This document shows, piece by piece, positions 1,968-9,857 of a stretch of 36,490 bases of DNA. The stretch covers positions 1 to 36,490 of the IMG/VR virus record IMGVR_UViG_3300031965_000092, one strand, 5' to 3'. The translations under genes were made by a program, and so were the position numbers. The notes under the pieces were generated by a model that was given only the letters and a program-made list of their open reading frames with translations, was not told the DNA's origin and did no database searches. How positions within the stretch are numbered: position 1 is the first letter of the stretch; every line of letters begins with the position of its first letter. This DNA is from a virus (lineage: Duplodnaviria; Caudoviricetes).

Positions 1968-2165
1968 ATGACAGAATTTGCAGGGCAGCAAGACGCCTAT
2001 TTCAATGGCTGCAAAAAAGGCAGCAAAGAGATGTATGACGAGATACGCGAGTATCTAATTAAGCAGCATCGTAAGTATAAAGAGGATGAGCAACACGCTA
2101 AATCGCATGCCATATGGCTTGTGCTGCAAGATTTACATGACATGTATCACTGTGGGAGAGGGTAA
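1968..2165 (+). CDS. Hypothetical protein
   Basis: AAGGA RBS; stop overlaps next start. Confidence 0.7.
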   Translation: MTEFAGQQDAYFNGCKKGSKEMYDEIREYLIKQHRKYKEDEQHAKSHAIWLVLQDLHDMYHCGRG

Positions 2166-2344
2166 TGGTTAAGGTAACGTGCGAACATTCAGGTATTGAG
2201 TTTGAGACTAAGGACATACAGCAAAGCCATGACAAGCTCTTGGAATTTGTTATTAAGATATCCAAAGCTGACGAACCATCTCGGCGTGTATCTATGCAAA
2301 TCGTTCATGAAGCAAGAGATTTATTAAAGGAATTGGAATGCTAA
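2165..2344 (+). CDS. Hypothetical protein, LLEFV paralogue family (59 aa, not in ORF track)
   Basis: TAATG coupling; ...HDKLLEFVIKISK...EARDLLKELEC. Confidence 0.7.
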   Translation: MVKVTCEHSGIEFETKDIQQSHDKLLEFVIKISKADEPSRRVSMQIVHEARDLLKELEC

Positions 2345-2412
2345 CACTTAAAATCATAGGCTTTACAGTATTATTTATCGCGGCGGTTTGGGTGGTTTGG
2401 AGTTTGGTGTGA
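2338..2412 (+). CDS. Single-TM micropeptide (24 aa)
   Basis: MLTLKIIGFTVLFIAAVWVVWSLV; overlaps both neighbours. Confidence 0.45.
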   Translation: MLTLKIIGFTVLFIAAVWVVWSLV

Positions 2413-2570
2413 TTCCTCAATTTATTAAATGTCTATTTGGCGATCATGAGTTTATAGATGCACCATGCTGGTGGGATGGTCGATTAAAGCCAGTTGTTTG
2501 CCTTCATTGTGACACGTACAAGTTTGTGTGGAATAACCAAGCAGGAGTGAGTGATGTTCCTACTAACTAA
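2409..2570 (+). CDS. DUF1660-like small Cys/His phage protein
   Basis: GTG start after GGAG; FIKCLFGDHEF...CLHC pattern. Confidence 0.5.
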   Translation: MIPQFIKCLFGDHEFIDAPCWWDGRLKPVVCLHCDTYKFVWNNQAGVSDVPTN

Positions 2571-2781
2571 AAATTTAGACGATTGCGAAACCCTAATACC
2601 AATCAGGAGCATTGGCGAAGTTATTTTGTATGACAAAGACGATGAATTAAAAGACGATCTAGTTTACTCGATACTAATTTTTAGTAATGAAGAATCAACA
2701 TCAATCGCAAGAGAAGATTTTTATACACCGGACGAAGCAAGAAAGCGGTTTGCCGAGATATATAGGCAATTAGCAGGCTAG
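2554..2781 (+). CDS. Hypothetical protein
   Basis: AGGAG RBS; beta-rich then TPDEARKRF helix. Confidence 0.7.
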   Translation: MFLLTKNLDDCETLIPIRSIGEVILYDKDDELKDDLVYSILIFSNEESTSIAREDFYTPDEARKRFAEIYRQLAG

Positions 2782-2813
2782 ACTGCAACACTACCAGAAT
2801 CGCATAAATTATT

Positions 2814-2854
2814 GCTGTAGAGCCATAAAGTGAATTTATGGCTGTAGAGCCATA
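2814..2854 (+). repeat. 14-bp direct repeat GCTGTAGAGCCATA x2 with intervening hairpin
   Basis: Copies at 2814-2827 and 2841-2854; AGCCATAAA-GTGAA-TTTATGGCT stem-loop. Confidence 0.8.
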
Positions 2855-2865
2855 GGAGAAATTAT

Positions 2866-2980
2866 TTAGACCAAAGACTGATTCGTAAGGTGGTGCATCA
2901 GGTAGAACCCAGCGGCTTTGCTTAAATTGGCGTATCCGCGCAGTACGCAGGCCACCTTGCGAATCAAGTGTTTGGTTTAA
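2866..2980 (+). ncRNA. Structured RNA: about 28-bp closing stem around a multi-hairpin core
   Basis: 2866-2894 pairs with 2951-2980 (three G-U pairs on the + strand, one mismatch, one bulge); inner hairpins GGT-AGA-ACC, AGC-GGCTTT-GCT, GCGTA-TCCGCGCAG-TACGC; intergenic. Confidence 0.7.
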
Positions 2981-2982
2981 TT
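2962..2982 (+). repeat. 21-bp direct repeat AATCAAGTGTTTGGTTTAATT, copy 1
   Basis: Identical to 3556-3576. Confidence 0.9.
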
Positions 2983-3000
2983 TAAATAGAGGAAATATAG

Positions 3001-3336
3001 ATGTTGGAAGACATGAAAGTATCACAATTAGTAAAATTGGTAAGCGCATTAAATGATAGCGCTCAACAACCGCAAATGTGTTTTTGGAATGTTGGAAAAG
3101 CATACTTTATTCGCACTGTCACGATGCACTTGGTTGGCGAATTAATAGCCTTTAACGATAAAGAACTCTTATTGAGAAACGCTTCATGGGTTGCTGACTC
3201 CGGCAGATTTCACGATGCGCTAAAAACAGGTGAACTCAATGAAGTGGAACCGTTTATTAACGATGTTATTTTAAACCGTGATTGTATAGTCGATGCTACG
3301 GAGTGGCTGTTTCAATTACCAAAGGTGCAAAAATGA
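3001..3336 (+). CDS. Putative Sm/LSm-fold protein
   Basis: GAGG RBS; VGKAYFIRT..HLVGELIAFNDKELLLRNA resembles Sm1 and VILNRDCIV resembles Sm2. Confidence 0.55.
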   Translation: MLEDMKVSQLVKLVSALNDSAQQPQMCFWNVGKAYFIRTVTMHLVGELIAFNDKELLLRNASWVADSGRFHDALKTGELNEVEPFINDVILNRDCIVDATEWLFQLPKVQK

Positions 3337-3554
3337 ACTATGCAGTTTTAAAAGCTAATGAGTGGTCGCGGTCGTGGTCGCGGTCGTGGTCGCGGTCGCG
3401 GTCGGGGTCGGGGTCGGGGTCGGGGTCGTGGTCGGGGTCGCGGTCGGGGTCGTGGTCGGGGTCGGGGTCGGGGTCGCGGTCGGGGTCGTGGTCGTGGTCG
3501 GGGTCGCGGTCGGGGTCGGGGTCGGGGTCGTGGTCGTGGTCGTGGTCGGGGTAA
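3333..3554 (+). CDS. Low-complexity (W/R/G-S)n repeat peptide (73 aa)
   Basis: ATGA overlap with the upstream stop; 10-aa leader MNYAVLKANE, then the repeat; TAA exactly at the repeat end. Confidence 0.6.
   Translation: MNYAVLKANEWSRSWSRSWSRSRSGSGSGSGSWSGSRSGSWSGSGSGSRSGSWSWSGSRSGSGSGSWSWSWSG
3363..3551 (+). repeat. Hexamer tandem array (BGGTCG), 32 units, adenine-free
   Basis: Only the first base varies (10 T, 7 C, 15 G); the last unit lacks TCG. Confidence 0.95.
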
Positions 3555-3555
3555 A

Positions 3556-3576
3556 AATCAAGTGTTTGGTTTAATT
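3556..3576 (+). repeat. 21-bp direct repeat, copy 2
   Basis: Identical to 2962-2982; directly precedes the AGGAGG RBS of the next gene. Confidence 0.9.
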
Positions 3577-3587
3577 AGGAGGATGAA

Positions 3588-3857
3588 ATGGAATACGTGG
3601 CAAATCCAGTTATTGTAGATGCTTACAAAATTGACCGATGTTTGACGGATGAAAGTGGCAACTATCAAGTCAGGTTAGACAATGGATTATGGCAAACACC
3701 AACACTTGAAATGATGGCTCGCTACAAGCCTACCATTGGCGACTATTGGGTAATTCAATCAGATGGCTATGTGTACCTTAATCCCGCTGATGTTTTTGAA
3801 AGAAAATACTCACCGTTACAAGGCACTGATTCTTTACCGCAACCAGAAATAGGTTAA
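3588..3857 (+). CDS. Conserved phage hypothetical protein (PVxVxA...GDYW...DGY...VFERKY type)
   Basis: AGGAGG RBS; motif pattern common in phage accessory regions. Confidence 0.7.
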   Translation: MEYVANPVIVDAYKIDRCLTDESGNYQVRLDNGLWQTPTLEMMARYKPTIGDYWVIQSDGYVYLNPADVFERKYSPLQGTDSLPQPEIG

Positions 3858-3862
3858 ACACA

Positions 3863-3932
3863 GGCAGCCATAGCATAACGAATGCAGCCGACCTGTAACG
3901 GTTGATGCAGGTAAAATCCTGCTGGCTGTCCA
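3863..3932 (+). ncRNA. Second tRNA-like cloverleaf, non-canonical loops
   Basis: GGCAGCCA/TGGCTGTC acceptor, GCAT-AACGA-ATGC D-arm, AGCCG-ACCTGTAA-CGGTT anticodon-like arm, GCAGG-TAAAAT-CCTGC T-like arm. Confidence 0.65.
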
Positions 3933-3946
3933 GAATGGATGAGAAG

Positions 3947-4537
3947 ATGAAAATATTAGTTGGATGCGAATTTTCAGGAATAGTACGCTCCGCATTTCGC
4001 AATAAAGGTCATAATGCCTGGTCATGTGATTTGTTAGAAAGTGAAGATAATAGTCCGTATCACATTCAAGAAGATTTACTCTCTATTTTAAATAATGGAT
4101 GGGAATTAGCTATTTTTCACCCCCCCTGCACATACCTAACTAATGCAGGTGTTTGCCATCTTCATAAAGATAAATCCCGGTGGGATTGTATGCGAGAGGG
4201 TGCTGTATTTTTTAAAGCATTACTGGATGCTCCCATACCTAGAATTGCAATTGAAAACCCTATTATGCACAAATATGCAATTGAGATCATCGGGCGCAGG
4301 CAAGACCAACTGATACAGCCATATATGTTTGGCCATCCTGAGAAAAAAGCCACCTGTTTATGGCTTAAAGGATTGCCACCATTAGTACCAACGAATAATG
4401 TTAAAGAGGAAATGCTTTTGTTGCCTAAAAATAAACAACAGCGATTGCATTATTTACCGCCTTCAAAAGATAGGTGGAAGCTTAGAAGCATGACTTATCC
4501 GGGTATCGCCATGGCAATGGCAGAACAGTGGGGATAA
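3947..4537 (+). CDS. Phage C5-cytosine DNA methyltransferase-like protein
   Basis: MKILVGCEFSG (motif I-like), HPPCTYL (catalytic PC), IAIENP, MAEQWG; start moved to the ATG at 3947, after the RNA element. Confidence 0.8.
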   Translation: MKILVGCEFSGIVRSAFRNKGHNAWSCDLLESEDNSPYHIQEDLLSILNNGWELAIFHPPCTYLTNAGVCHLHKDKSRWDCMREGAVFFKALLDAPIPRIAIENPIMHKYAIEIIGRRQDQLIQPYMFGHPEKKATCLWLKGLPPLVPTNNVKEEMLLLPKNKQQRLHYLPPSKDRWKLRSMTYPGIAMAMAEQWG

Positions 4538-4558
4538 TACATTTAATTGGAGAAACAG

Positions 4559-4795
4559 ATGAATAAAAGATTATGTATATCATTAGGATTGATGTTAGCC
4601 CTTATTATTATCATGCCATTTCAATGCGCAAGAGCTTCTAGCTGGGAGTGCATTAACAGAGTTGTGTTATGCCATACATGGCGAATGGCTGTATATGGTG
4701 GCTGGATTGTATCAGGTGATAATTCAGCGGGTGGCAGTGACCACACCTATGCCATGACATTTGTGCCTGATATAGAGCATAAATGGAAACTGTGA
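4559..4795 (+). CDS. Signal peptide + WE..TxR..VxGGW..FVPD domain protein
   Basis: GGAG RBS; basic then hydrophobic N-terminus ending ARA; domain shared with 6693 and 31563 genes. Confidence 0.7.
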   Translation: MNKRLCISLGLMLALIIIMPFQCARASSWECINRVVLCHTWRMAVYGGWIVSGDNSAGGSDHTYAMTFVPDIEHKWKL

Positions 4796-4865
4796 TGCCA
4801 TTTAATTGTACCAACCTTATCACACAATTTTGCTGTGATAGGTTTATAACAAGTGAGGTGGAAGG

Positions 4866-5057
4866 ATGAAAATATTAAAGTTTACTGATAAGCGATATCT
4901 CGTAGTCGATAAAATTGAAGCATATGGTATTCAACAGCAAGAATCATGCTGGATAGTATGGGTTAATATTGGAAATGTGTCTTACAGCAAAGATTGCGAC
5001 ACTGAGGAAGAAGCCAGAACCGAGCTAAAACTAGTTGATGACTGTTTTTATATTTAA
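4866..5057 (+). CDS. Hypothetical protein
   Basis: GAGGTGG RBS; TEEEAR helix like the 2554 gene. Confidence 0.7.
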   Translation: MKILKFTDKRYLVVDKIEAYGIQQQESCWIVWVNIGNVSYSKDCDTEEEARTELKLVDDCFYI

Positions 5058-5071
5058 GAAAAGGTGGAAGT

Positions 5072-5248
5072 ATGGAATTTGTAGAAGTATTAAATTTTAT
5101 GAGAATGGGTGAAAAAATAACTAGACCGATTTTTGCTAAAGGTTTTTATTTTAGCTTAGAAAACTTTTGTGATTATAAAGGAACATTTATCACTCAAGAA
5201 GATATTGATGCAGGCGACTGGGAGCTGGTAAATGACAAACGAAGCTAA
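5072..5248 (+). CDS. DUF2829/Tad2-like protein (58 aa, not in ORF track)
   Basis: MEFVEVLNFMRMGEKITRP...TQEDIDAGDWELV matches the MxFxEA..GxKxxR...xDxxAxDW pattern. Confidence 0.65.
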   Translation: MEFVEVLNFMRMGEKITRPIFAKGFYFSLENFCDYKGTFITQEDIDAGDWELVNDKRS

Positions 5249-5420
5249 GTTCGGGGAGTGGGTGAGCGTGTCTGATAAAATGCCAGATGCGGATGGTCGT
5301 TATTTAGTATGTTGTGATTATTGGTCTAAATGGATTGGTGTTGATGCATTAAGAAATGGCAAATGGGGTGATGAAAAAGTATCTCACTACATGCCACTGC
5401 CACTACCACCGAAGGATTGA
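5232..5420 (+). CDS. DUF551-like protein
   Basis: WVSVSDKMPD...YLV...VSHYMPLPLPP. Confidence 0.8.
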   Translation: MTNEAKFGEWVSVSDKMPDADGRYLVCCDYWSKWIGVDALRNGKWGDEKVSHYMPLPLPPKD

Positions 5421-5424
5421 GAGG

Positions 5425-5610
5425 ATGATACCAAAATTATTTGCTCTTAAAATGTGTCCTTTCTGCGGTGGGGAGCCATCACTTTCAACTGGACAAATTG
5501 GGGCGGCAAGAGCAGTAGCATTTTATATCGAATGTATAGATTGTGCTTCCTCTAGTGACATGAGATATCAACCAGATAAAGCAGCAGAATTATGGAATAA
5601 ACGAATATGA
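5425..5610 (+). CDS. Lar family restriction-alleviation-like protein
   Basis: LKMCPFCGG...IECIDC...AAELWNKR. Confidence 0.75.
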   Translation: MIPKLFALKMCPFCGGEPSLSTGQIGAARAVAFYIECIDCASSSDMRYQPDKAAELWNKRI

Positions 5611-5813
5611 AACATGACTCCAACCACAAACTTGACGTAGCCTGTCTCGATTGCGTGAGAACGCATATAGCACAGAAAGAAAGGTTAATTGCCTATGTCG
5701 AGCGACTATCCGAAGTAGAGCATTATGAATACCCGTTTTCTGGCGATGATATTTTAATGCCGAGTGATTTTTTGAAGGAATTGGAAAAGGAAAACGAAGG
5801 ATTGAGAGAATGA
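5607..5813 (+). CDS. Hypothetical protein
   Basis: ATGA coupling on both sides. Confidence 0.7.
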   Translation: MKHDSNHKLDVACLDCVRTHIAQKERLIAYVERLSEVEHYEYPFSGDDILMPSDFLKELEKENEGLRE

Positions 5814-6037
5814 GAAAAAGCGACAACATAAAATTAGAAACAGCCGCCCAAGTTATGCGAGCATTTCTCAAAGGTCACAAGTTAATAAATAGTGAGTACC
5901 ATGATGATACTGGCGAACAATATTTATATCTTTCTGACACGGGTATGATTTGCGAAGAAGATGGCGCAGGAGCAAAGGCGAATCGTGTGCCTATTTGTAT
6001 GCGGTCTGAGGATACTTGGTGGGAGATATTAGAATGA
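5810..6037 (+). CDS. Hypothetical protein, possibly divergent DUF2829-like
   Basis: AQVMRAFLKGHKL...WWEILE; coupled to neighbours. Confidence 0.6.
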   Translation: MRKSDNIKLETAAQVMRAFLKGHKLINSEYHDDTGEQYLYLSDTGMICEEDGAGAKANRVPICMRSEDTWWEILE

Positions 6038-6252
6038 AAACAGTAACAACAAAAATAATATGCGATAGCTGTGGTGCAGACATCTCGCCTCAAGCAACAG
6101 GTTATCCAGCCGTATATATATTAAAGGTTACAGCGGAAAATGTTGCACGACATACAGAGAATAGTGTGGTTTTTGCAGTTCATAGCTACCCGCCAATTGA
6201 ACATGATTTATATTTTTGCAATTTGGAATGTATGAGGAAATACAACGAATGA
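6034..6252 (+). CDS. Zinc-finger protein
   Basis: ICDSCG...FCNLEC. Confidence 0.7.
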   Translation: MKTVTTKIICDSCGADISPQATGYPAVYILKVTAENVARHTENSVVFAVHSYPPIEHDLYFCNLECMRKYNE

Positions 6253-6488
6253 ACCACAGTGAAGATGATTGCTATCAAGATGGAATCCGCTTGCCCCTAG
6301 CGACTGACCAAAGCGAGCAATTAAAACGCCACTTCGAAGCCTGTACGCTACTAGGCGAAGCACAGGGTATGCTTAATGGGATTGTATGGTCAGTTCAATT
6401 CCAGAATGACGAGCATAAGAAGTTAGCCGAGAATAACGTTAAGCGATGGGCGGATAAGGTTGAGAAATTTATGGAGATGACGGAATGA
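6249..6488 (+). CDS. Hypothetical protein
   Basis: ATGA coupling. Confidence 0.65.
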   Translation: MNHSEDDCYQDGIRLPLATDQSEQLKRHFEACTLLGEAQGMLNGIVWSVQFQNDEHKKLAENNVKRWADKVEKFMEMTE

Positions 6489-6700
6489 CAGATAAACCAC
6501 TATTATCACCTGACATACAAAAATGGATGGAAGACGAGCTTCTTAGAATACAGGTTGAGATGTACCTTCTAGGAAAAAAAGACATTCTTGGTTCACTACT
6601 TGACGCGCTAGAGTCACTGTCTGAAATTAATTTTAATAAACCTAATATTCTAATGCTTGTGCGAAAATGCAAAGAACAATTGGAGAAAAGGAATGACTAA
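6485..6700 (+). CDS. Hypothetical protein
   Basis: GGAG RBS; ATGA coupling. Confidence 0.65.
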   Translation: MTDKPLLSPDIQKWMEDELLRIQVEMYLLGKKDILGSLLDALESLSEINFNKPNILMLVRKCKEQLEKRND

Positions 6701-7556
6701 CGAAAAATTAGAGTGGGAAAATTATTGTGTAAATACACATAGATTAAAAGTTGAAGGTGGTTATTTATATCTCCATATTGGAAATGTTAATAATACAATG
6801 TGTTTCGTTCCTGATGCGCCAAAGATATTAGATTGCTTAGAATGCGGAAAAAAGTTAACTGACGATCACAATTGCGACCCGCAACCTAACGGGGCGCAGG
6901 ATGGGGATATTCAAGAACAGTTAAATGAGTTAAGAAAGATAGTATCTAATATTGTTAAGCGACAGCTTGAATATCATAATAAAGAAAATGAATTGTTGAA
7001 CAAAGTAGCTGAACTCTCCATGAAGTTAAGCAAGATGCAATCCGACCTACGCGAGTTCGAGAAGCAGAAGGTTGACGTATTACGCGATACGATACATGGG
7101 CAAGATATTAGAGTAGAGAAGATGTTTCAGCGCATCGAGAAGCTAGAAACACATGTTAATGAATTAGATAAACAATCTGAAATATTAGCCATGGAATGTT
7201 TGAGTGATAACCCCAATGCTTTAGAGCGCATCGAGAAACTGGAATCTAAAACTACTATCATTCCCGATTTTGATGTAACGATGAAACAATATGAGGGAAT
7301 TTGTGGTCAATTAGATATTTTTAGTTTGCGCATTCAAAACCTAGAACAACACAAAGAATATCAGATAACGGAAAACCGCGCTGAGAGCAAGCATCTTGAT
7401 GAGATTGAAAAGCGCATTGAGAAACTGGAATCCATACGCTCCAATGACCAGGTATTCCACGACGAGTTAGTCCAGCATGAGCATAGGATTAAGCAATTAG
7501 AGCAACGCCAAAACCCACTGAACTATACGATGCCTAGCGAAGGTAACTGCACATGA
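6693..7556 (+). CDS. FVPD-domain + CxxC + long coiled-coil protein with RIEKLE repeats
   Basis: N-terminal WENYCVNTHRLKVEGGY..MCFVPD; RIEKLE x3, RIQNLE, RIKQLE. Confidence 0.75.
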   Translation: MTNEKLEWENYCVNTHRLKVEGGYLYLHIGNVNNTMCFVPDAPKILDCLECGKKLTDDHNCDPQPNGAQDGDIQEQLNELRKIVSNIVKRQLEYHNKENELLNKVAELSMKLSKMQSDLREFEKQKVDVLRDTIHGQDIRVEKMFQRIEKLETHVNELDKQSEILAMECLSDNPNALERIEKLESKTTIIPDFDVTMKQYEGICGQLDIFSLRIQNLEQHKEYQITENRAESKHLDEIEKRIEKLESIRSNDQVFHDELVQHEHRIKQLEQRQNPLNYTMPSEGNCT

Positions 7557-7780
7557 CTGACTTAACCTATGAAAAACTCGAAGAAGTAATTAGCTTTTTT
7601 AATAAAACATCCCAGACGAGGGGCTTCCAGATGAGCGATAGAGACAAGTATGTTGAGCTGCTAGAGTTTGTTAAAATGATTGCTCAACCAGAGGCTAGAA
7701 AATTCACGCAGGAATACGGGGACGTGGCAGAGATACTACTTAAAGAAATTGGAGAGTACCGAATCAATGAAACTAGATAA
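7553..7780 (+). CDS. Hypothetical protein, LLEFV paralogue family (alternative start 7631)
   Basis: DKYVELLEFVKMIA...AEILLKEIG. Confidence 0.65.
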   Translation: MTDLTYEKLEEVISFFNKTSQTRGFQMSDRDKYVELLEFVKMIAQPEARKFTQEYGDVAEILLKEIGEYRINETR

Positions 7781-7919
7781 ATATAATGAATTATTAAAGT
7801 TTGTTATGGAATTAAGCATTGATCCTTGTATGTGCATCTTTAAAGATCAAAGATGCTATTCATGCGAGGCAATGGAACTTCTGGATAAATTAAAAGTTGG
7901 AATGCAATTAAATGAGTGA
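7767..7919 (+). CDS. Hypothetical protein, LLEFV paralogue family with Cys insert
   Basis: DKYNELLKFVMELS..CMC..CYSCEAMELLDKL. Confidence 0.65.
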   Translation: MKLDKYNELLKFVMELSIDPCMCIFKDQRCYSCEAMELLDKLKVGMQLNE

Positions 7920-8005
7920 CCTAGCCAAACAAAAAATAACCTATCACCATCCGCCACCATCCGCTACACTAGTATTATTAGTAACCAACCAAGGATGTTA
8001 AGGAA

Positions 8006-8212
8006 ATGAAATTAGAACAAGGAACTGTTAAGTTTTTCAACAATGAGCGTGGCTATGGATTTATCAATCGCGATAACGGTCAAGATGTATTCGTGCATTA
8101 CAAAGGCATCGCCGGCGATGGATACCGAACACTAGCAGAAGGCCAGCGCGTCGAATTTAGAGTCACCCAAGGCCAAAAAGGATTGCAAGCGGAGGATGTC
8201 AAGGAGGTGTAA
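8006..8212 (+). CDS. Cold-shock domain protein (CspA family)
   Basis: GTVKFFN, RNP1 RGYGFI, RNP2 DVFVHY, GQKGLQA. Confidence 0.95.
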
Positions 8213-8431
8213 TTGCGCCCACGCATCAATGGCAATGAGTTAAAGTCAGGCATACTTTATGCATTTGACCACATACTCAAGATGCAACGACGCACGAATC
8301 ATCCTGAGGCAAAGCGCACCTATGCCATGATTTTAGCTTCCTTGTATCGCGAAATGATCAGAATGGGAGCAATCGATGCCGAAAATACACAGTACCATCG
8401 AGATCAGCACACAGGGTTGCCAAGGGAGTGA
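8213..8431 (+). CDS. Hypothetical protein
   Basis: AGGAGGT RBS with TTG start. Confidence 0.6.
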   Translation: MRPRINGNELKSGILYAFDHILKMQRRTNHPEAKRTYAMILASLYREMIRMGAIDAENTQYHRDQHTGLPRE

Positions 8432-8438
8432 TTGCAAC

Positions 8439-8669
8439 ATGCCTAAACGGATTAGGAGACATCGGGTAAACCACGGCCAAGCACAGGGTGAACCCCATTC
8501 CCACCACTACAAATCAACTGCCACATCGGATAAGAATCGGTTCTTTCATGGTGTGCAAAATAAAAACCAAGGCGTCACCCAAAATGTCTCAGTCAACGTA
8601 CAACTAGAAAAAGAAGATAGCTGCATTAAAGACTGCTTTGCCGGTTTGGTCAGCTGCTTTAGGAGATGA
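8439..8669 (+). CDS. Basic, His-rich protein with Cys-rich C-terminal helix
   Basis: GGAG RBS; MPKRIRRHR...DSCIKDCFAGLVSCFRR. Confidence 0.6.
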   Translation: MPKRIRRHRVNHGQAQGEPHSHHYKSTATSDKNRFFHGVQNKNQGVTQNVSVNVQLEKEDSCIKDCFAGLVSCFRR

Positions 8670-8670
8670 A

Positions 8671-8946
8671 ATGCCAGAAACAACCATCATGAATATGCAA
8701 ACCCACATCGATAGCCTCCAAAAACGCCTCTCACAGGTCGAAAAGCTTTTCACCCACCTCATGCAACTCCAATTGCGTTTAGACACGCTAGAGTTCAATT
8801 CTGAGCTTCCTGTGCAACCATCCAGTGCCGAGCGTCTAGCTAGCATGGAACGCCGCCAGAAAAAGCTTGAGAGCTTACTAAGACCAGTGCTTGGTGAGCG
8901 ATTTGATAAATTCTTAAACGATGAAGGACTAAGCTATGAAGGATAA
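8671..8946 (+). CDS. Coiled-coil hypothetical protein
   Basis: AGGAG RBS; heptad pattern. Confidence 0.65.
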   Translation: MPETTIMNMQTHIDSLQKRLSQVEKLFTHLMQLQLRLDTLEFNSELPVQPSSAERLASMERRQKKLESLLRPVLGERFDKFLNDEGLSYEG

Positions 8947-8989
8947 GAAAAAGAGCAAGAAGCCGCCTAGGCCGAAGAGAGGTTACTAG
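8936..8989 (+). CDS. Basic micropeptide MKDKKKSKKPPRPKRGY
   Basis: AAGGA RBS; overlaps the previous stop; precedes the structured rep leader. Confidence 0.35.
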   Translation: MKDKKKSKKPPRPKRGY

Positions 8990-9000
8990 GATATAATCCA

Positions 9001-9107
9001 AACCAGCCATAATAGATGCTATGGCTGGTTAATACGGATAGCTTGGAATTAAGCGAGGAAACTTAATTTTAAGCTATCTCTTTAAAAATTACAATACGGA
9101 GATAGCT
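9001..9107 (+). promoter_or_regulatory. Structured leader with alternative RBS-sequestering pairing
   Basis: 11-bp hairpin 9001-9030; 17-bp hairpin 9037-9078; AGCTATCTC(9072-9080) is also complementary to GAGATAGCT(9099-9107). Confidence 0.6.
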
Positions 9108-9848
9108 ATGTCTAAAGAAAAAATCATTTCTAACCAAAGCGGAATGAATGATGAAGTTGTAATCAAGCCAAAAAGAAATAATTTCACAATAGTGTCAAAC
9201 AAAATTGGCAACAATATTAAAAATGGTGATGCATTTTTGCTCTGGTTTTACTTAACCTCAAAAACTGATAATTGGAAAGTCATTAAATCTCATTTGTGTT
9301 CACATTTTGGATGGTCAATGAAAAAGCTTAACCATTTGTTCCAAGTGTTATGTGGCCATCAATTAGCAAAAACGTATCAGCTAAAAGCAGAAAAGGGGAA
9401 ATTTGGAAAGTACATGATTGAGATTCATGATGGTGAAAATTTCGTTGAATTCGATGAAAAAACACTTGTGGATAAGTCTAAAAAAACCAAAAAAATCAAC
9501 ACTCCTCACCGCTATCCCAAAAACCGCAAAGCGGTAAAACCGCTAAGCGGCAAAAGCACAGCTACTAAATACTGTATTACTACCAAAGATCCTAAAGAAC
9601 AAAATAAAGAAAAAGCTTTTAAGACAAAAGCTGTGGATAACTCCACAAATCTTAAAAACCTAAAAGCGCAAAACAAGGTAAAGCATTCATGGGCGCCTAT
9701 GGCTAACGAAAAAGCTGCCATTGAAAAACATGAGAAGCTAAAGCAAGAATCGTGCAGCAAAGAAACCATACAGTTTGTAAGAGGTATTTTTGCTAAACCA
9801 GAACTAACAGGGGATCAAAATGAAATCGATTGGGGATTGGATAGATAA
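9108..9848 (+). CDS. Putative replication initiator (winged-HTH N-terminus), stand-alone
   Basis: NNFTIVSN..AFLLWFYLTSKTDNW pattern; Lys-rich linker holding repeats and DnaA boxes. Confidence 0.65.
   Translation: MSKEKIISNQSGMNDEVVIKPKRNNFTIVSNKIGNNIKNGDAFLLWFYLTSKTDNWKVIKSHLCSHFGWSMKKLNHLFQVLCGHQLAKTYQLKAEKGKFGKYMIEIHDGENFVEFDEKTLVDKSKKTKKINTPHRYPKNRKAVKPLSGKSTATKYCITTKDPKEQNKEKAFKTKAVDNSTNLKNLKAQNKVKHSWAPMANEKAAIEKHEKLKQESCSKETIQFVRGIFAKPELTGDQNEIDWGLDR
9467..9640. promoter_or_regulatory. Putative origin: DnaA boxes flanking palindromic iterons
   Basis: TGTGGATAA at 9467-9475 and 9632-9640; AAAACCGCAAAGCGGT/AAAACCGCTAAGCGGC in tandem at 9520-9551; A-rich surroundings. Confidence 0.6.
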
Positions 9849-9857
9849 AGCTGTTTT

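Follow-up and report, generated by a model that had tools for sequence, protein, structure and literature searches.

A Predicted Sm-Fold Protein Gene and a Dipeptide-Repeat Peptide Gene Form a Linked Two-Gene Cassette in Phages

The window, i.e., the whole 36.5-kb virus record that was analysed, encodes head, connector, terminase-small-subunit, DnaB, SSB, Sak4-like and repressor-like genes. A run of small genes on the + strand (approximately positions 1968–9850) is preceded by the repressor-like gene on the opposite strand, and this arrangement suggests that the run is an early operon. Within it lies a pair of overlapping genes, called the cassette below, whose products (111 and 73 aa) matched neither Pfam nor PHROG. 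The features of the cassette and its flanks are as follows.

2866..2980, + strand: long intergenic hairpin with a stem of 27–28 bp, found in this phage only
2962..2982, + strand: first copy of a 21-bp direct repeat; it makes up the hairpin's 3′ arm and precedes the ribosome-binding site of the Sm-like gene
3001..3336, + strand: cassette gene 1, encoding a protein with a predicted Sm/LSm fold (111 aa, net charge −4, pI 5.0)
3333..3554, + strand: cassette gene 2, encoding a leader followed by a (Trp/Arg/Gly-Ser)n peptide (73 aa, net charge +7)
3363..3551, + strand: hexamer array (NGG TCG)n, 31.5 copies
3556..3576, + strand: second copy of the 21-bp direct repeat, preceding the ribosome-binding site of ORF 3588

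The gene upstream of the cassette (2551–2781) had no relative in viral contigs. ORF 3588–3857 (+, 89 aa), behind the second copy of the 21-mer, had 20 relatives there, and none of their loci carried the cassette or the hairpin. The search for sigma-70 promoters gave no excess. Among sequencing runs, a DNA contig from the probable source run covered the window from 3559 onwards, and three RNA runs yielded no contig. The same + strand run also encodes a cold-shock protein (8006–8212, +; PHROG 729, E 9e-19), a member of an RNA-chaperone family.

Several other structured elements were seen in the record. At the beginning of the presumed operon (1878–1947, +) lies a tRNA-like element with an intact T-arm and degenerate D and anticodon arms, which scored 27.6 bits with the Rfam tRNA model (gathering score 29, E 0.0006) and was not called by ARAGORN. 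The second cloverleaf-like element, intergenic and located at 3864–3934 (+; z −3.7), has three short arms, ends near CCA and matched no Rfam family. Between 2806 and 2856, two 22-nt direct copies, 91% alike and 27 nt apart, form a joint hairpin (z −5.8); the second copy is a palindrome with a 6-nt spacer, and the pair is operator- or antiterminator-like. Hairpin pairs were also present at 8990–9110 (z −6.6), immediately before a replication-initiator-like gene, and at 7761–7870 (z −4.4), within small ORFs.

The start codon of the peptide gene overlaps the stop codon of the Sm-like gene as ATGA, and the coupling of the two ORFs, together with the 10-aa leader of the second product, had been described correctly in the initial annotation. 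The alternating (W/R/G)-S pattern stood as well, with a corrected count: the 73-aa peptide consists of the leader, 31 X-Ser pairs and a last Gly, which gives 31.5 units instead of the 32 reported. Its 32 X positions are occupied by 10 Trp, 7 Arg and 15 Gly residues. All Ser codons of the array in the window are TCG and all X codons are NGG. No usable match for this peptide was found in the Atlas.

By sequence, no relative of the 111-aa protein with a solved structure was found (best E 0.78). Structure prediction supported an Sm-like fold, which had been proposed from Sm1/Sm2-like strand patterns. The AlphaFold2 model (pLDDT 91) consists of a helix and five strands (residues 34–39, 43–51, 55–66, 89–92 and 96–101), with an inserted helix and strand at 70–84. 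The top structural matches (VIA) were Sm/LSm chains, the best with Z 9.2 and rmsd 2.8 over 71 aligned residues; 19 chains reached Z 8 or more, and Hfq scored 6.7 or less. The top Foldseek rows were also Sm/LSm chains, none reaching E 0.001, and the identity to the top structural rows was 11–22%. The predicted N-terminal helix and bent five-stranded sheet, in which a 3-10 turn leads into strand 5, are arranged as in Sm/LSm proteins (SmAP1 1loj, SmF 1n9r, Lsm1-7) and in Hfq, so the 111-aa protein is predicted to have an Sm-like fold. Its homologues numbered 1177 at 90% clustering and 1852 at 50%.

Alignment of 259 proteins of this Sm-like family revealed the near-invariant residues R38, T41, G46, W63, D66, G68, R69, G77, E81, E83 and D98. 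Most invariant residues are carried by an insertion of roughly 25 residues (63–88, helix and strand) that is missing from canonical Sm proteins; among the invariant positions, W63, D66, F70, E81, E83, F85 and D98 are acidic or aromatic. Two features are shared with Sm/LSm proteins, the conserved Gly46 and Arg93. The conserved basic residue of loop L5 (Sm2 motif) is Arg in Sm proteins, and Arg93, at the beginning of the 3-10 turn, occurs in 89% of the 259 proteins. A third feature differs. In the available text on Hfq, uracil stacking is attributed to an aromatic L3 residue, Phe42 (PMC5379935). Loop L3 of the Sm-like family (52–54, placed from the strands of the predicted model) is T/N-D-K, variable and non-aromatic across the 259 proteins, with Tyr in 8% at position 52. 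The family is also acidic, with a median net charge of −3 and pI 5.3 (n=125) and 92% of the 259 proteins negative. It therefore appears, on the predicted model, to combine the Sm fold with a loop L3 that lacks the aromatic residue of the uracil pocket in RNA-binding Sm, LSm and Hfq proteins; it differs from them in its acidity and in having its partner peptide encoded by a separate gene.

Four natural tandem Sm-Sm fusions were found (P0124, P0141, P0172 and P0204). P0124 was predicted as a packed two-domain unit (pTM 0.78), and both of its domains were matched by ORF137 of Pyrobaculum spherical virus (Z 9.2, 105 residues aligned), which is listed as uncharacterised in the available part of PMC2883930. 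Rings of Sm, LSm and Hfq proteins assemble through pairing of strand 4 with strand 5; the tandem fusions are compatible with self-association and do not demonstrate such a ring. Prediction of a complex of two Sm-like proteins and a 45-aa peptide gave a score of 0.04, which is no answer and tells neither for nor against binding.

The linkage of the two genes was examined in 218 loci, 166 of which (the window included) had the Sm-like gene; 125 were distinct at 90%, and 102 of these extended at least 150 nt downstream. An (X-Ser)n ORF began within 300 nt downstream of the Sm-like gene in 89 of the 102 distinct loci, 48 of the 89 having an ATGA or GTGA overlap of the Sm stop and the peptide start. 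The repeat ORF lay upstream in 6 further loci, and none was detected in the remaining 7. Control loci gave one chance-like (X-Ser)n match in 52. The tight association of the Sm-like gene with a repeat ORF, anticipated at the outset, was thus confirmed. At least two peptide ORFs were present in 22 of the 89 linked loci, and in four loci (L007, L016, L017 and L029) 6–7 paralogous peptide genes with drifting leaders stand behind one Sm-like gene, the copies in L017 being strongly degenerate. Fusions of the Sm-like protein to an (X-Ser)n segment were found neither among 272 proteins nor among three matches of 260–2000 aa, the latter being weak.

No neighbouring gene family occurred in more than 6 of the 125 loci within 2.5 kb. 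The module, which had been proposed to consist of three parts, is a two-part one, as there is no conserved third gene and the upstream hairpin was found in this phage only: the Sm-like fold and the linkage to a repeat ORF were supported, and a linkage to an upstream RNA was not. In the phage collection, the single record with the Sm-like gene also has the peptide gene, annotated as hypothetical, and in the prokaryotic genome collection there were 5 loci, all from MAGs. Many contigs end inside the Ser-X array, and this scarcity in genomes may come from assembly breaks at the repeat. The cassette is probably optional cargo, carried from one phage genome to other, unrelated ones.

The recurrence of several peptide genes per Sm-like gene bears on two other explanations. 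One of them is a toxin/antidote or decoy pair, in which the Trp/Arg peptide would be a membrane- or ribosome-active toxin, or a Ser-rich decoy for host kinases or sensors, and the Sm-like protein would neutralise or time it; as a toxin, the peptide would serve host take-over or exclusion of superinfecting phages. Strict translational coupling, the paralogue arrays (22 of 89 loci with at least two copies) and the scarcity of the cassette in prokaryotic genomes (the 5 MAG loci) fit such a pair, and so does the basic Trp/Arg composition, which resembles that of antimicrobial peptides. However, no signal or secretion feature was seen, this scarcity may reflect the assembly breaks, and the acidic Gly-Tyr/Asp peptides of the sister module described below would act differently on membranes. 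We regard this explanation as unlikely.

The other explanation, an improbable one in our view, is a RiPP-like pair in which R38, D66, R69, E81, E83 and D98 would make up a metal or catalytic site, with which the protein would modify or cleave a leader-plus-core peptide. It would account for the leader followed by a hypervariable core, for several precursors per partner gene and for the near-invariant Asp, Glu and Arg residues in an insertion missing from canonical Sm proteins. A chain of the manganese-oxidase Mnx complex (9bxa_B, Z 7.3), which binds metal, was also among the fold matches. On the other hand, no modifying enzyme, protease, peptidase or exporter was conserved nearby (125 loci, 2.5 kb), the leaders are only loosely conserved, and we know of no catalytic Sm fold.

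The repeat arrays themselves indicate which product is under selection. A start codon at the Sm stop opened the Ser frame in 83 of 97 arrays, compared to 8 arrays for the Gly frame and 1 for the third. The Gly-Arg frame of the window (3358–3618) was considered as a real gene and rejected; such a frame has a coupled start in those 8 of 97 loci only, and its second residue varies between loci. Ser is retained whether the array is built of TCG, TCT, TCA or AGC (49, 25, 10 and 12 of 96 arrays, respectively). The X residues are Arg in 35%, Trp in 27% and Gly in 25% (2157 codons in 110 arrays), and none of the 83 complete peptides lacks Trp. Variability within arrays was 0.60 at the non-synonymous first base of X and 0.073, 8-fold less, at the silent third base of Ser. 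A variable X first base next to a constant silent Ser base implies that the W/R/G mixture is maintained with its order free; selection on the Ser-X array thus seems, as judged from the sequences, to act at the protein level, on composition. The peptides have a median charge of +10 and a median length of 65 (n=156). A diversity-generating retroelement, or other adenine-specific mutagenesis, was rejected as the source of the variation; the A of AGC Ser codons and NAY codons are fixed, whereas the first base of X varies.

Other properties of the arrays lie at the nucleotide level. NGG is used for 718 of 759 Arg codons and 513 of 538 Gly codons (approximately 95%). Ser codons across all Ser-X arrays were TCG (981), TCT (866), AGC (336), TCA (163), TCC (13) and AGT (2), and synonymous third-base variants were rarer than non-synonymous second-base variants (26 vs. 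72 codon types in 96 arrays). TCC before NGG would generate restriction-type palindromes (CCNGG/GGWCC). The NGG bias, the rare third-base variants and the near lack of TCC and AGT make a nucleotide-level constraint possible. A corresponding explanation is that the repeat RNA is the ligand, i.e., an Sm-like ring, after the models of TRAP and Hfq, would read the hexamer array in its own mRNA and control downstream expression, the peptide being secondary or a translation-sensing leader. The codon preferences just given would follow from it, as would the GG spaced every 6 nt in the arrays of both this family and its sister, and the conserved Arg38, Arg69 and Arg93 suit it. Against this, concerted evolution around the obligatory TGG can yield the NGG bias, and the hexamer varies between loci (TCN or AGC Ser codons) with Ser kept. 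Moreover, downstream genes are not conserved, the protein is acidic with no aromatic residue in L3, and the peptide genes also come in runs of up to 7. This role of the repeat RNA is quite unlikely.

The initial annotation had also placed an intergenic RNA with a closing stem of roughly 28 bp directly 5′ of the 111-aa ORF, and this structure is present. Its minimum-energy fold (2866–2980) has −52.2 kcal/mol with z −7.20, 0 of 200 shuffles being as stable; the closing stem has 27 pairs in that fold and 28 in near-optimal folds, 3 of them G-U (+ strand). The 56-nt loop is weakly structured, the interior at 2893–2958 does not fold stably by itself (z +1.03), and the hairpin ends 20 nt before the start codon of the Sm-like gene. 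Rfam gave no match at 2866–2980 even at E 10, and none at gathering score in the whole window; ARAGORN made 0 tRNA or tmRNA calls.

The covarying RNA expected upstream of the homologues did not emerge. No homologue of the hairpin was found by blastn of the module loci or in the phage collection. Run on the window and 99 of the 165 other Sm loci, its covariance model detected only the hairpin itself, and it detected nothing in 50 whole phage records or in 42 further loci; the model was built from one sequence, so its sensitivity is low and it may overlook distant relatives. Viral contigs were also scanned with two patterns, which gave 31 and 18 matches; none was alike on inspection or by the model, to which 4 of the 31 were submitted. 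Upstream regions of other loci reached z < −3 in 7 of 73 cases, and the ones viewed among these were coding sequence, repeat arrays or stems of terminator type, none of them related to the hairpin. A long-stem hairpin with an inner branch recurs in four other viral contigs (L091, L098, L103 and L111) and is not homologous to that of the window by the model. A hairpin next to the cassette is unsurprising, because the region has other strong structures, two of them tRNA-like. Antisense action of the loop was rejected (best duplex −34.4 kcal/mol vs. −34.9 for shuffled loops), and long-range pairing of the 5′ arm with copy 2 of the 21-mer was disfavoured (−18.1 vs. −42.1 kcal/mol for the local stem).

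By sequence comparison, the hairpin is likely not part of the cassette. It is likely a cis element of the early transcript, and the chances that it is an RNase III-type processing stem as opposed to having another cis role are roughly even. The length of the stem and its place, immediately 5′ of a ribosome-binding site among early polycistronic genes, fit an RNase III signal, for which a minimum of roughly 11 bp, well exceeded here, is given in the available part of PMC3867540. Like the RNase III stems of the T7 early transcript, it is a long imperfect stem between polycistronic genes; sequence similarity between such stems is not expected, and by this analogy the hairpin is a processing-stem candidate only.

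The exact 21-bp repeats that bound the two ORFs were likewise confirmed, with 0 such matches expected by chance. Copy 1 is followed by AGAGGA (2988–2993), and copy 2 by AGGAGG (3577–3582), the ribosome-binding site before ORF 3588. The proposal that the 21-mer is a U-rich Sm-type site was not supported: it is 48% U with a longest U-run of 3, it is mostly base-paired in the stem, and it was not found at other loci. Of 73 loci, 13 have exact repeats of at least 12 nt on either side of the cassette, as against 6 among 216 control pairs. On visual inspection, 4 of these 13 are matches to a repeat array lying upstream, 1 is a duplication of 109 nt, and the other 8 (the window included) are mostly A/T-rich segments directly before the start codon. 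Except in two close relatives, the flanking sequences differ between loci, which points to insertion scars rather than a conserved binding site, and the 21-mer copies are likely a target site duplicated on insertion of the cassette.

These results weigh on the three-part phage ribonucleoprotein originally suggested, in which the hairpin RNA, an Sm ring and the repeat peptide would assemble and the 21-mer would serve as the Sm site. In its favour, the hairpin is highly stable and stands 20 nt from the start codon, and the predicted protein fold is Sm-like. Nevertheless, the RNA had no homologue in 99 module loci, 50 records and 42 loci, only 7 of 73 other upstream regions reached z < −3 (those viewed being unrelated), the 21-mer is paired, has no U-run longer than 3 and is locus-specific, and strong structures, intergenic or tRNA-like, also occur at several other places in this phage. 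Such a ribonucleoprotein is highly improbable.

A sister module was recognised around DUF6948 (PF22253). Among the best 80 of 402 loci, 67 were distinct, and in 66 of these a (Gly-Ser/Tyr/Asp)n ORF follows the DUF6948 gene, with an overlap of 13 nt in 55 loci. Its peptides have a median charge of −9 (66 peptides) and its barrel core a charge of +1 (67 loci), both within the best 80 of 402; the core of the Ser family has −2 (n=107), the core definitions differing slightly between the two. The 111-aa protein resembled DUF6948 structurally (BFVD E 2e-4; Atlas TM 0.59), and the profile–profile match of the two families was weak (7.5%, E 0.005). Neither the 111-aa protein nor 9 relatives matched PF22253, whose true members score 107–110 bits, and by Pfam the Sm-like family is not a DUF6948 member. 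Both families follow the same two-gene plan of a small barrel and an adjacent or overlapping dipeptide-repeat ORF, but the DUF6948 peptide is acidic and Gly-anchored whereas that of the Ser family is basic. At loci L010, L011, L025 and L026, the two modules lie side by side within 2.5 kb. Gly-X arrays were also seen at the Ser-family loci L033, L119, L152 and L155. DUF6948 occurs in 17 records of cultured phages; in phage phiPLPE the array stands behind the DUF6948 gene, and in the available text of PMC3391216 it is reported only as a GC-rich DNA repeat with speculation about an attachment site.

The part of the openly accessible literature that was covered contained no description of the cassette and no paper naming DUF6948. 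Within that literature, the combination of an Sm fold and a dipeptide-repeat peptide is undescribed, and it may be a new class.

Known systems offer partial parallels to an Sm core with such a partner. The RG/RS tails of SmB, SmD1, SmD3, LSm4 and SR proteins are charged low-complexity segments. In Hfq, the acidic C-terminal tail binds the basic core (PMC5606850, available text). The cassette likewise pairs an Sm core with a charged low-complexity segment; however, the tails of the Hfq/SmB type are fused to the core, and here an acidic core stands with a basic, Trp-rich partner encoded by a separate gene, often in multiple copies. The fold matches of the 111-aa model also included Edc3/LSM14-type domains (6f9w, 6y3z and 2vc8). 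According to the accessible part of PMC4320757, the LSm domain of Edc3 binds short motifs in disordered partners and drives phase separation. The Edc3/LSM14 proteins, scaffolds of P-bodies, differ from the cassette in being eukaryotic and multidomain, in binding helical Leu-rich motifs and in having no dipeptide-repeat mini-gene.

The explanation we favour, and hold tentatively, is that the acidic Sm-like protein, as an oligomer, binds the polycationic low-complexity peptide of its own cassette, and that this peptide acts on nucleic acids at an early stage of infection. That the peptide could be the partner of the Sm-like protein had been mentioned as an alternative from the start; the acidic family and the non-aromatic L3 favour it over a ribonucleoprotein on the hairpin RNA, and binding itself is what we infer. 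The Sm-like protein would form a ring or another oligomer and would contact the peptide directly, probably at the hydrophobic leader and the Arg and Trp side chains, through its W63, D66, F70, E81, E83, F85 and D98. It may serve as a chaperone or scaffold, keeping the sticky polycation in solution and organising it. The peptide, in turn, likely acts by its composition of aromatic, Arg and small residues, and its target may be nucleic acid, with compaction or a condensate shielding phage DNA or RNA or tying up host RNA.

The opposite charges of the partners (Sm family −3, peptides +10), mirrored in the DUF6948 pair, are consistent with such binding, and so are the linkage, the coupled Ser frame and the retention of Ser and Trp across loci. 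The tandem Sm-Sm fusions and the peptide-binding, phase-separating precedent of Edc3 (PMC4320757, in its available part) point the same way. The leader type also follows the Sm tree: KxNE-type leaders fall in 12 of 13 cases into one supported clade of 27 rows (quick tree, 98 rows), but this agreement is what co-inheritance alone gives. Within the Ser family, Sm charge and peptide charge density did not co-vary (rho 0.01, p 0.94, n=83), the acidity is modest, and 7 of 102 loci have no repeat ORF. The NGG bias and the scarce TCC and AGT codons leave room for a nucleotide-level role, and some Sm-type features persist (Arg93, 89%).

A bolder and rather unlikely extension is that phages carry a class of modules pairing an Sm ring with a dipeptide-repeat polymer. 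It would exist in two charge-mirrored versions, both variants of (Gly-Ser)n: an acidic ring would go with a basic (Trp/Arg/Gly-Ser)n, and a more basic ring with an acidic (Gly-Tyr/Asp/Ser)n. With the ring as template, the peptides would assemble into condensates or fibrils, and these would trap nucleic acids or defence factors of the host. If this were true, phages with both modules could co-assemble the two polymers. Hexanucleotide-encoded dipeptide-repeat proteins would then have a counterpart that is natural and under selection, and Sm/low-complexity condensate chemistry would have a version in prokaryotic viruses.

The model of the module should no longer include the hairpin or the 21-mer. 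The remaining cassette spans more than a thousand protein clusters. Both of its genes are tiny and the sister module occurs in cultured phages (Iodobacter phage phiPLPE), so the proposal is directly testable. If the pair binds, the Sm fold would have been re-used for a peptide partner from a separate gene, and dipeptide-repeat peptides would be under selection for their composition.
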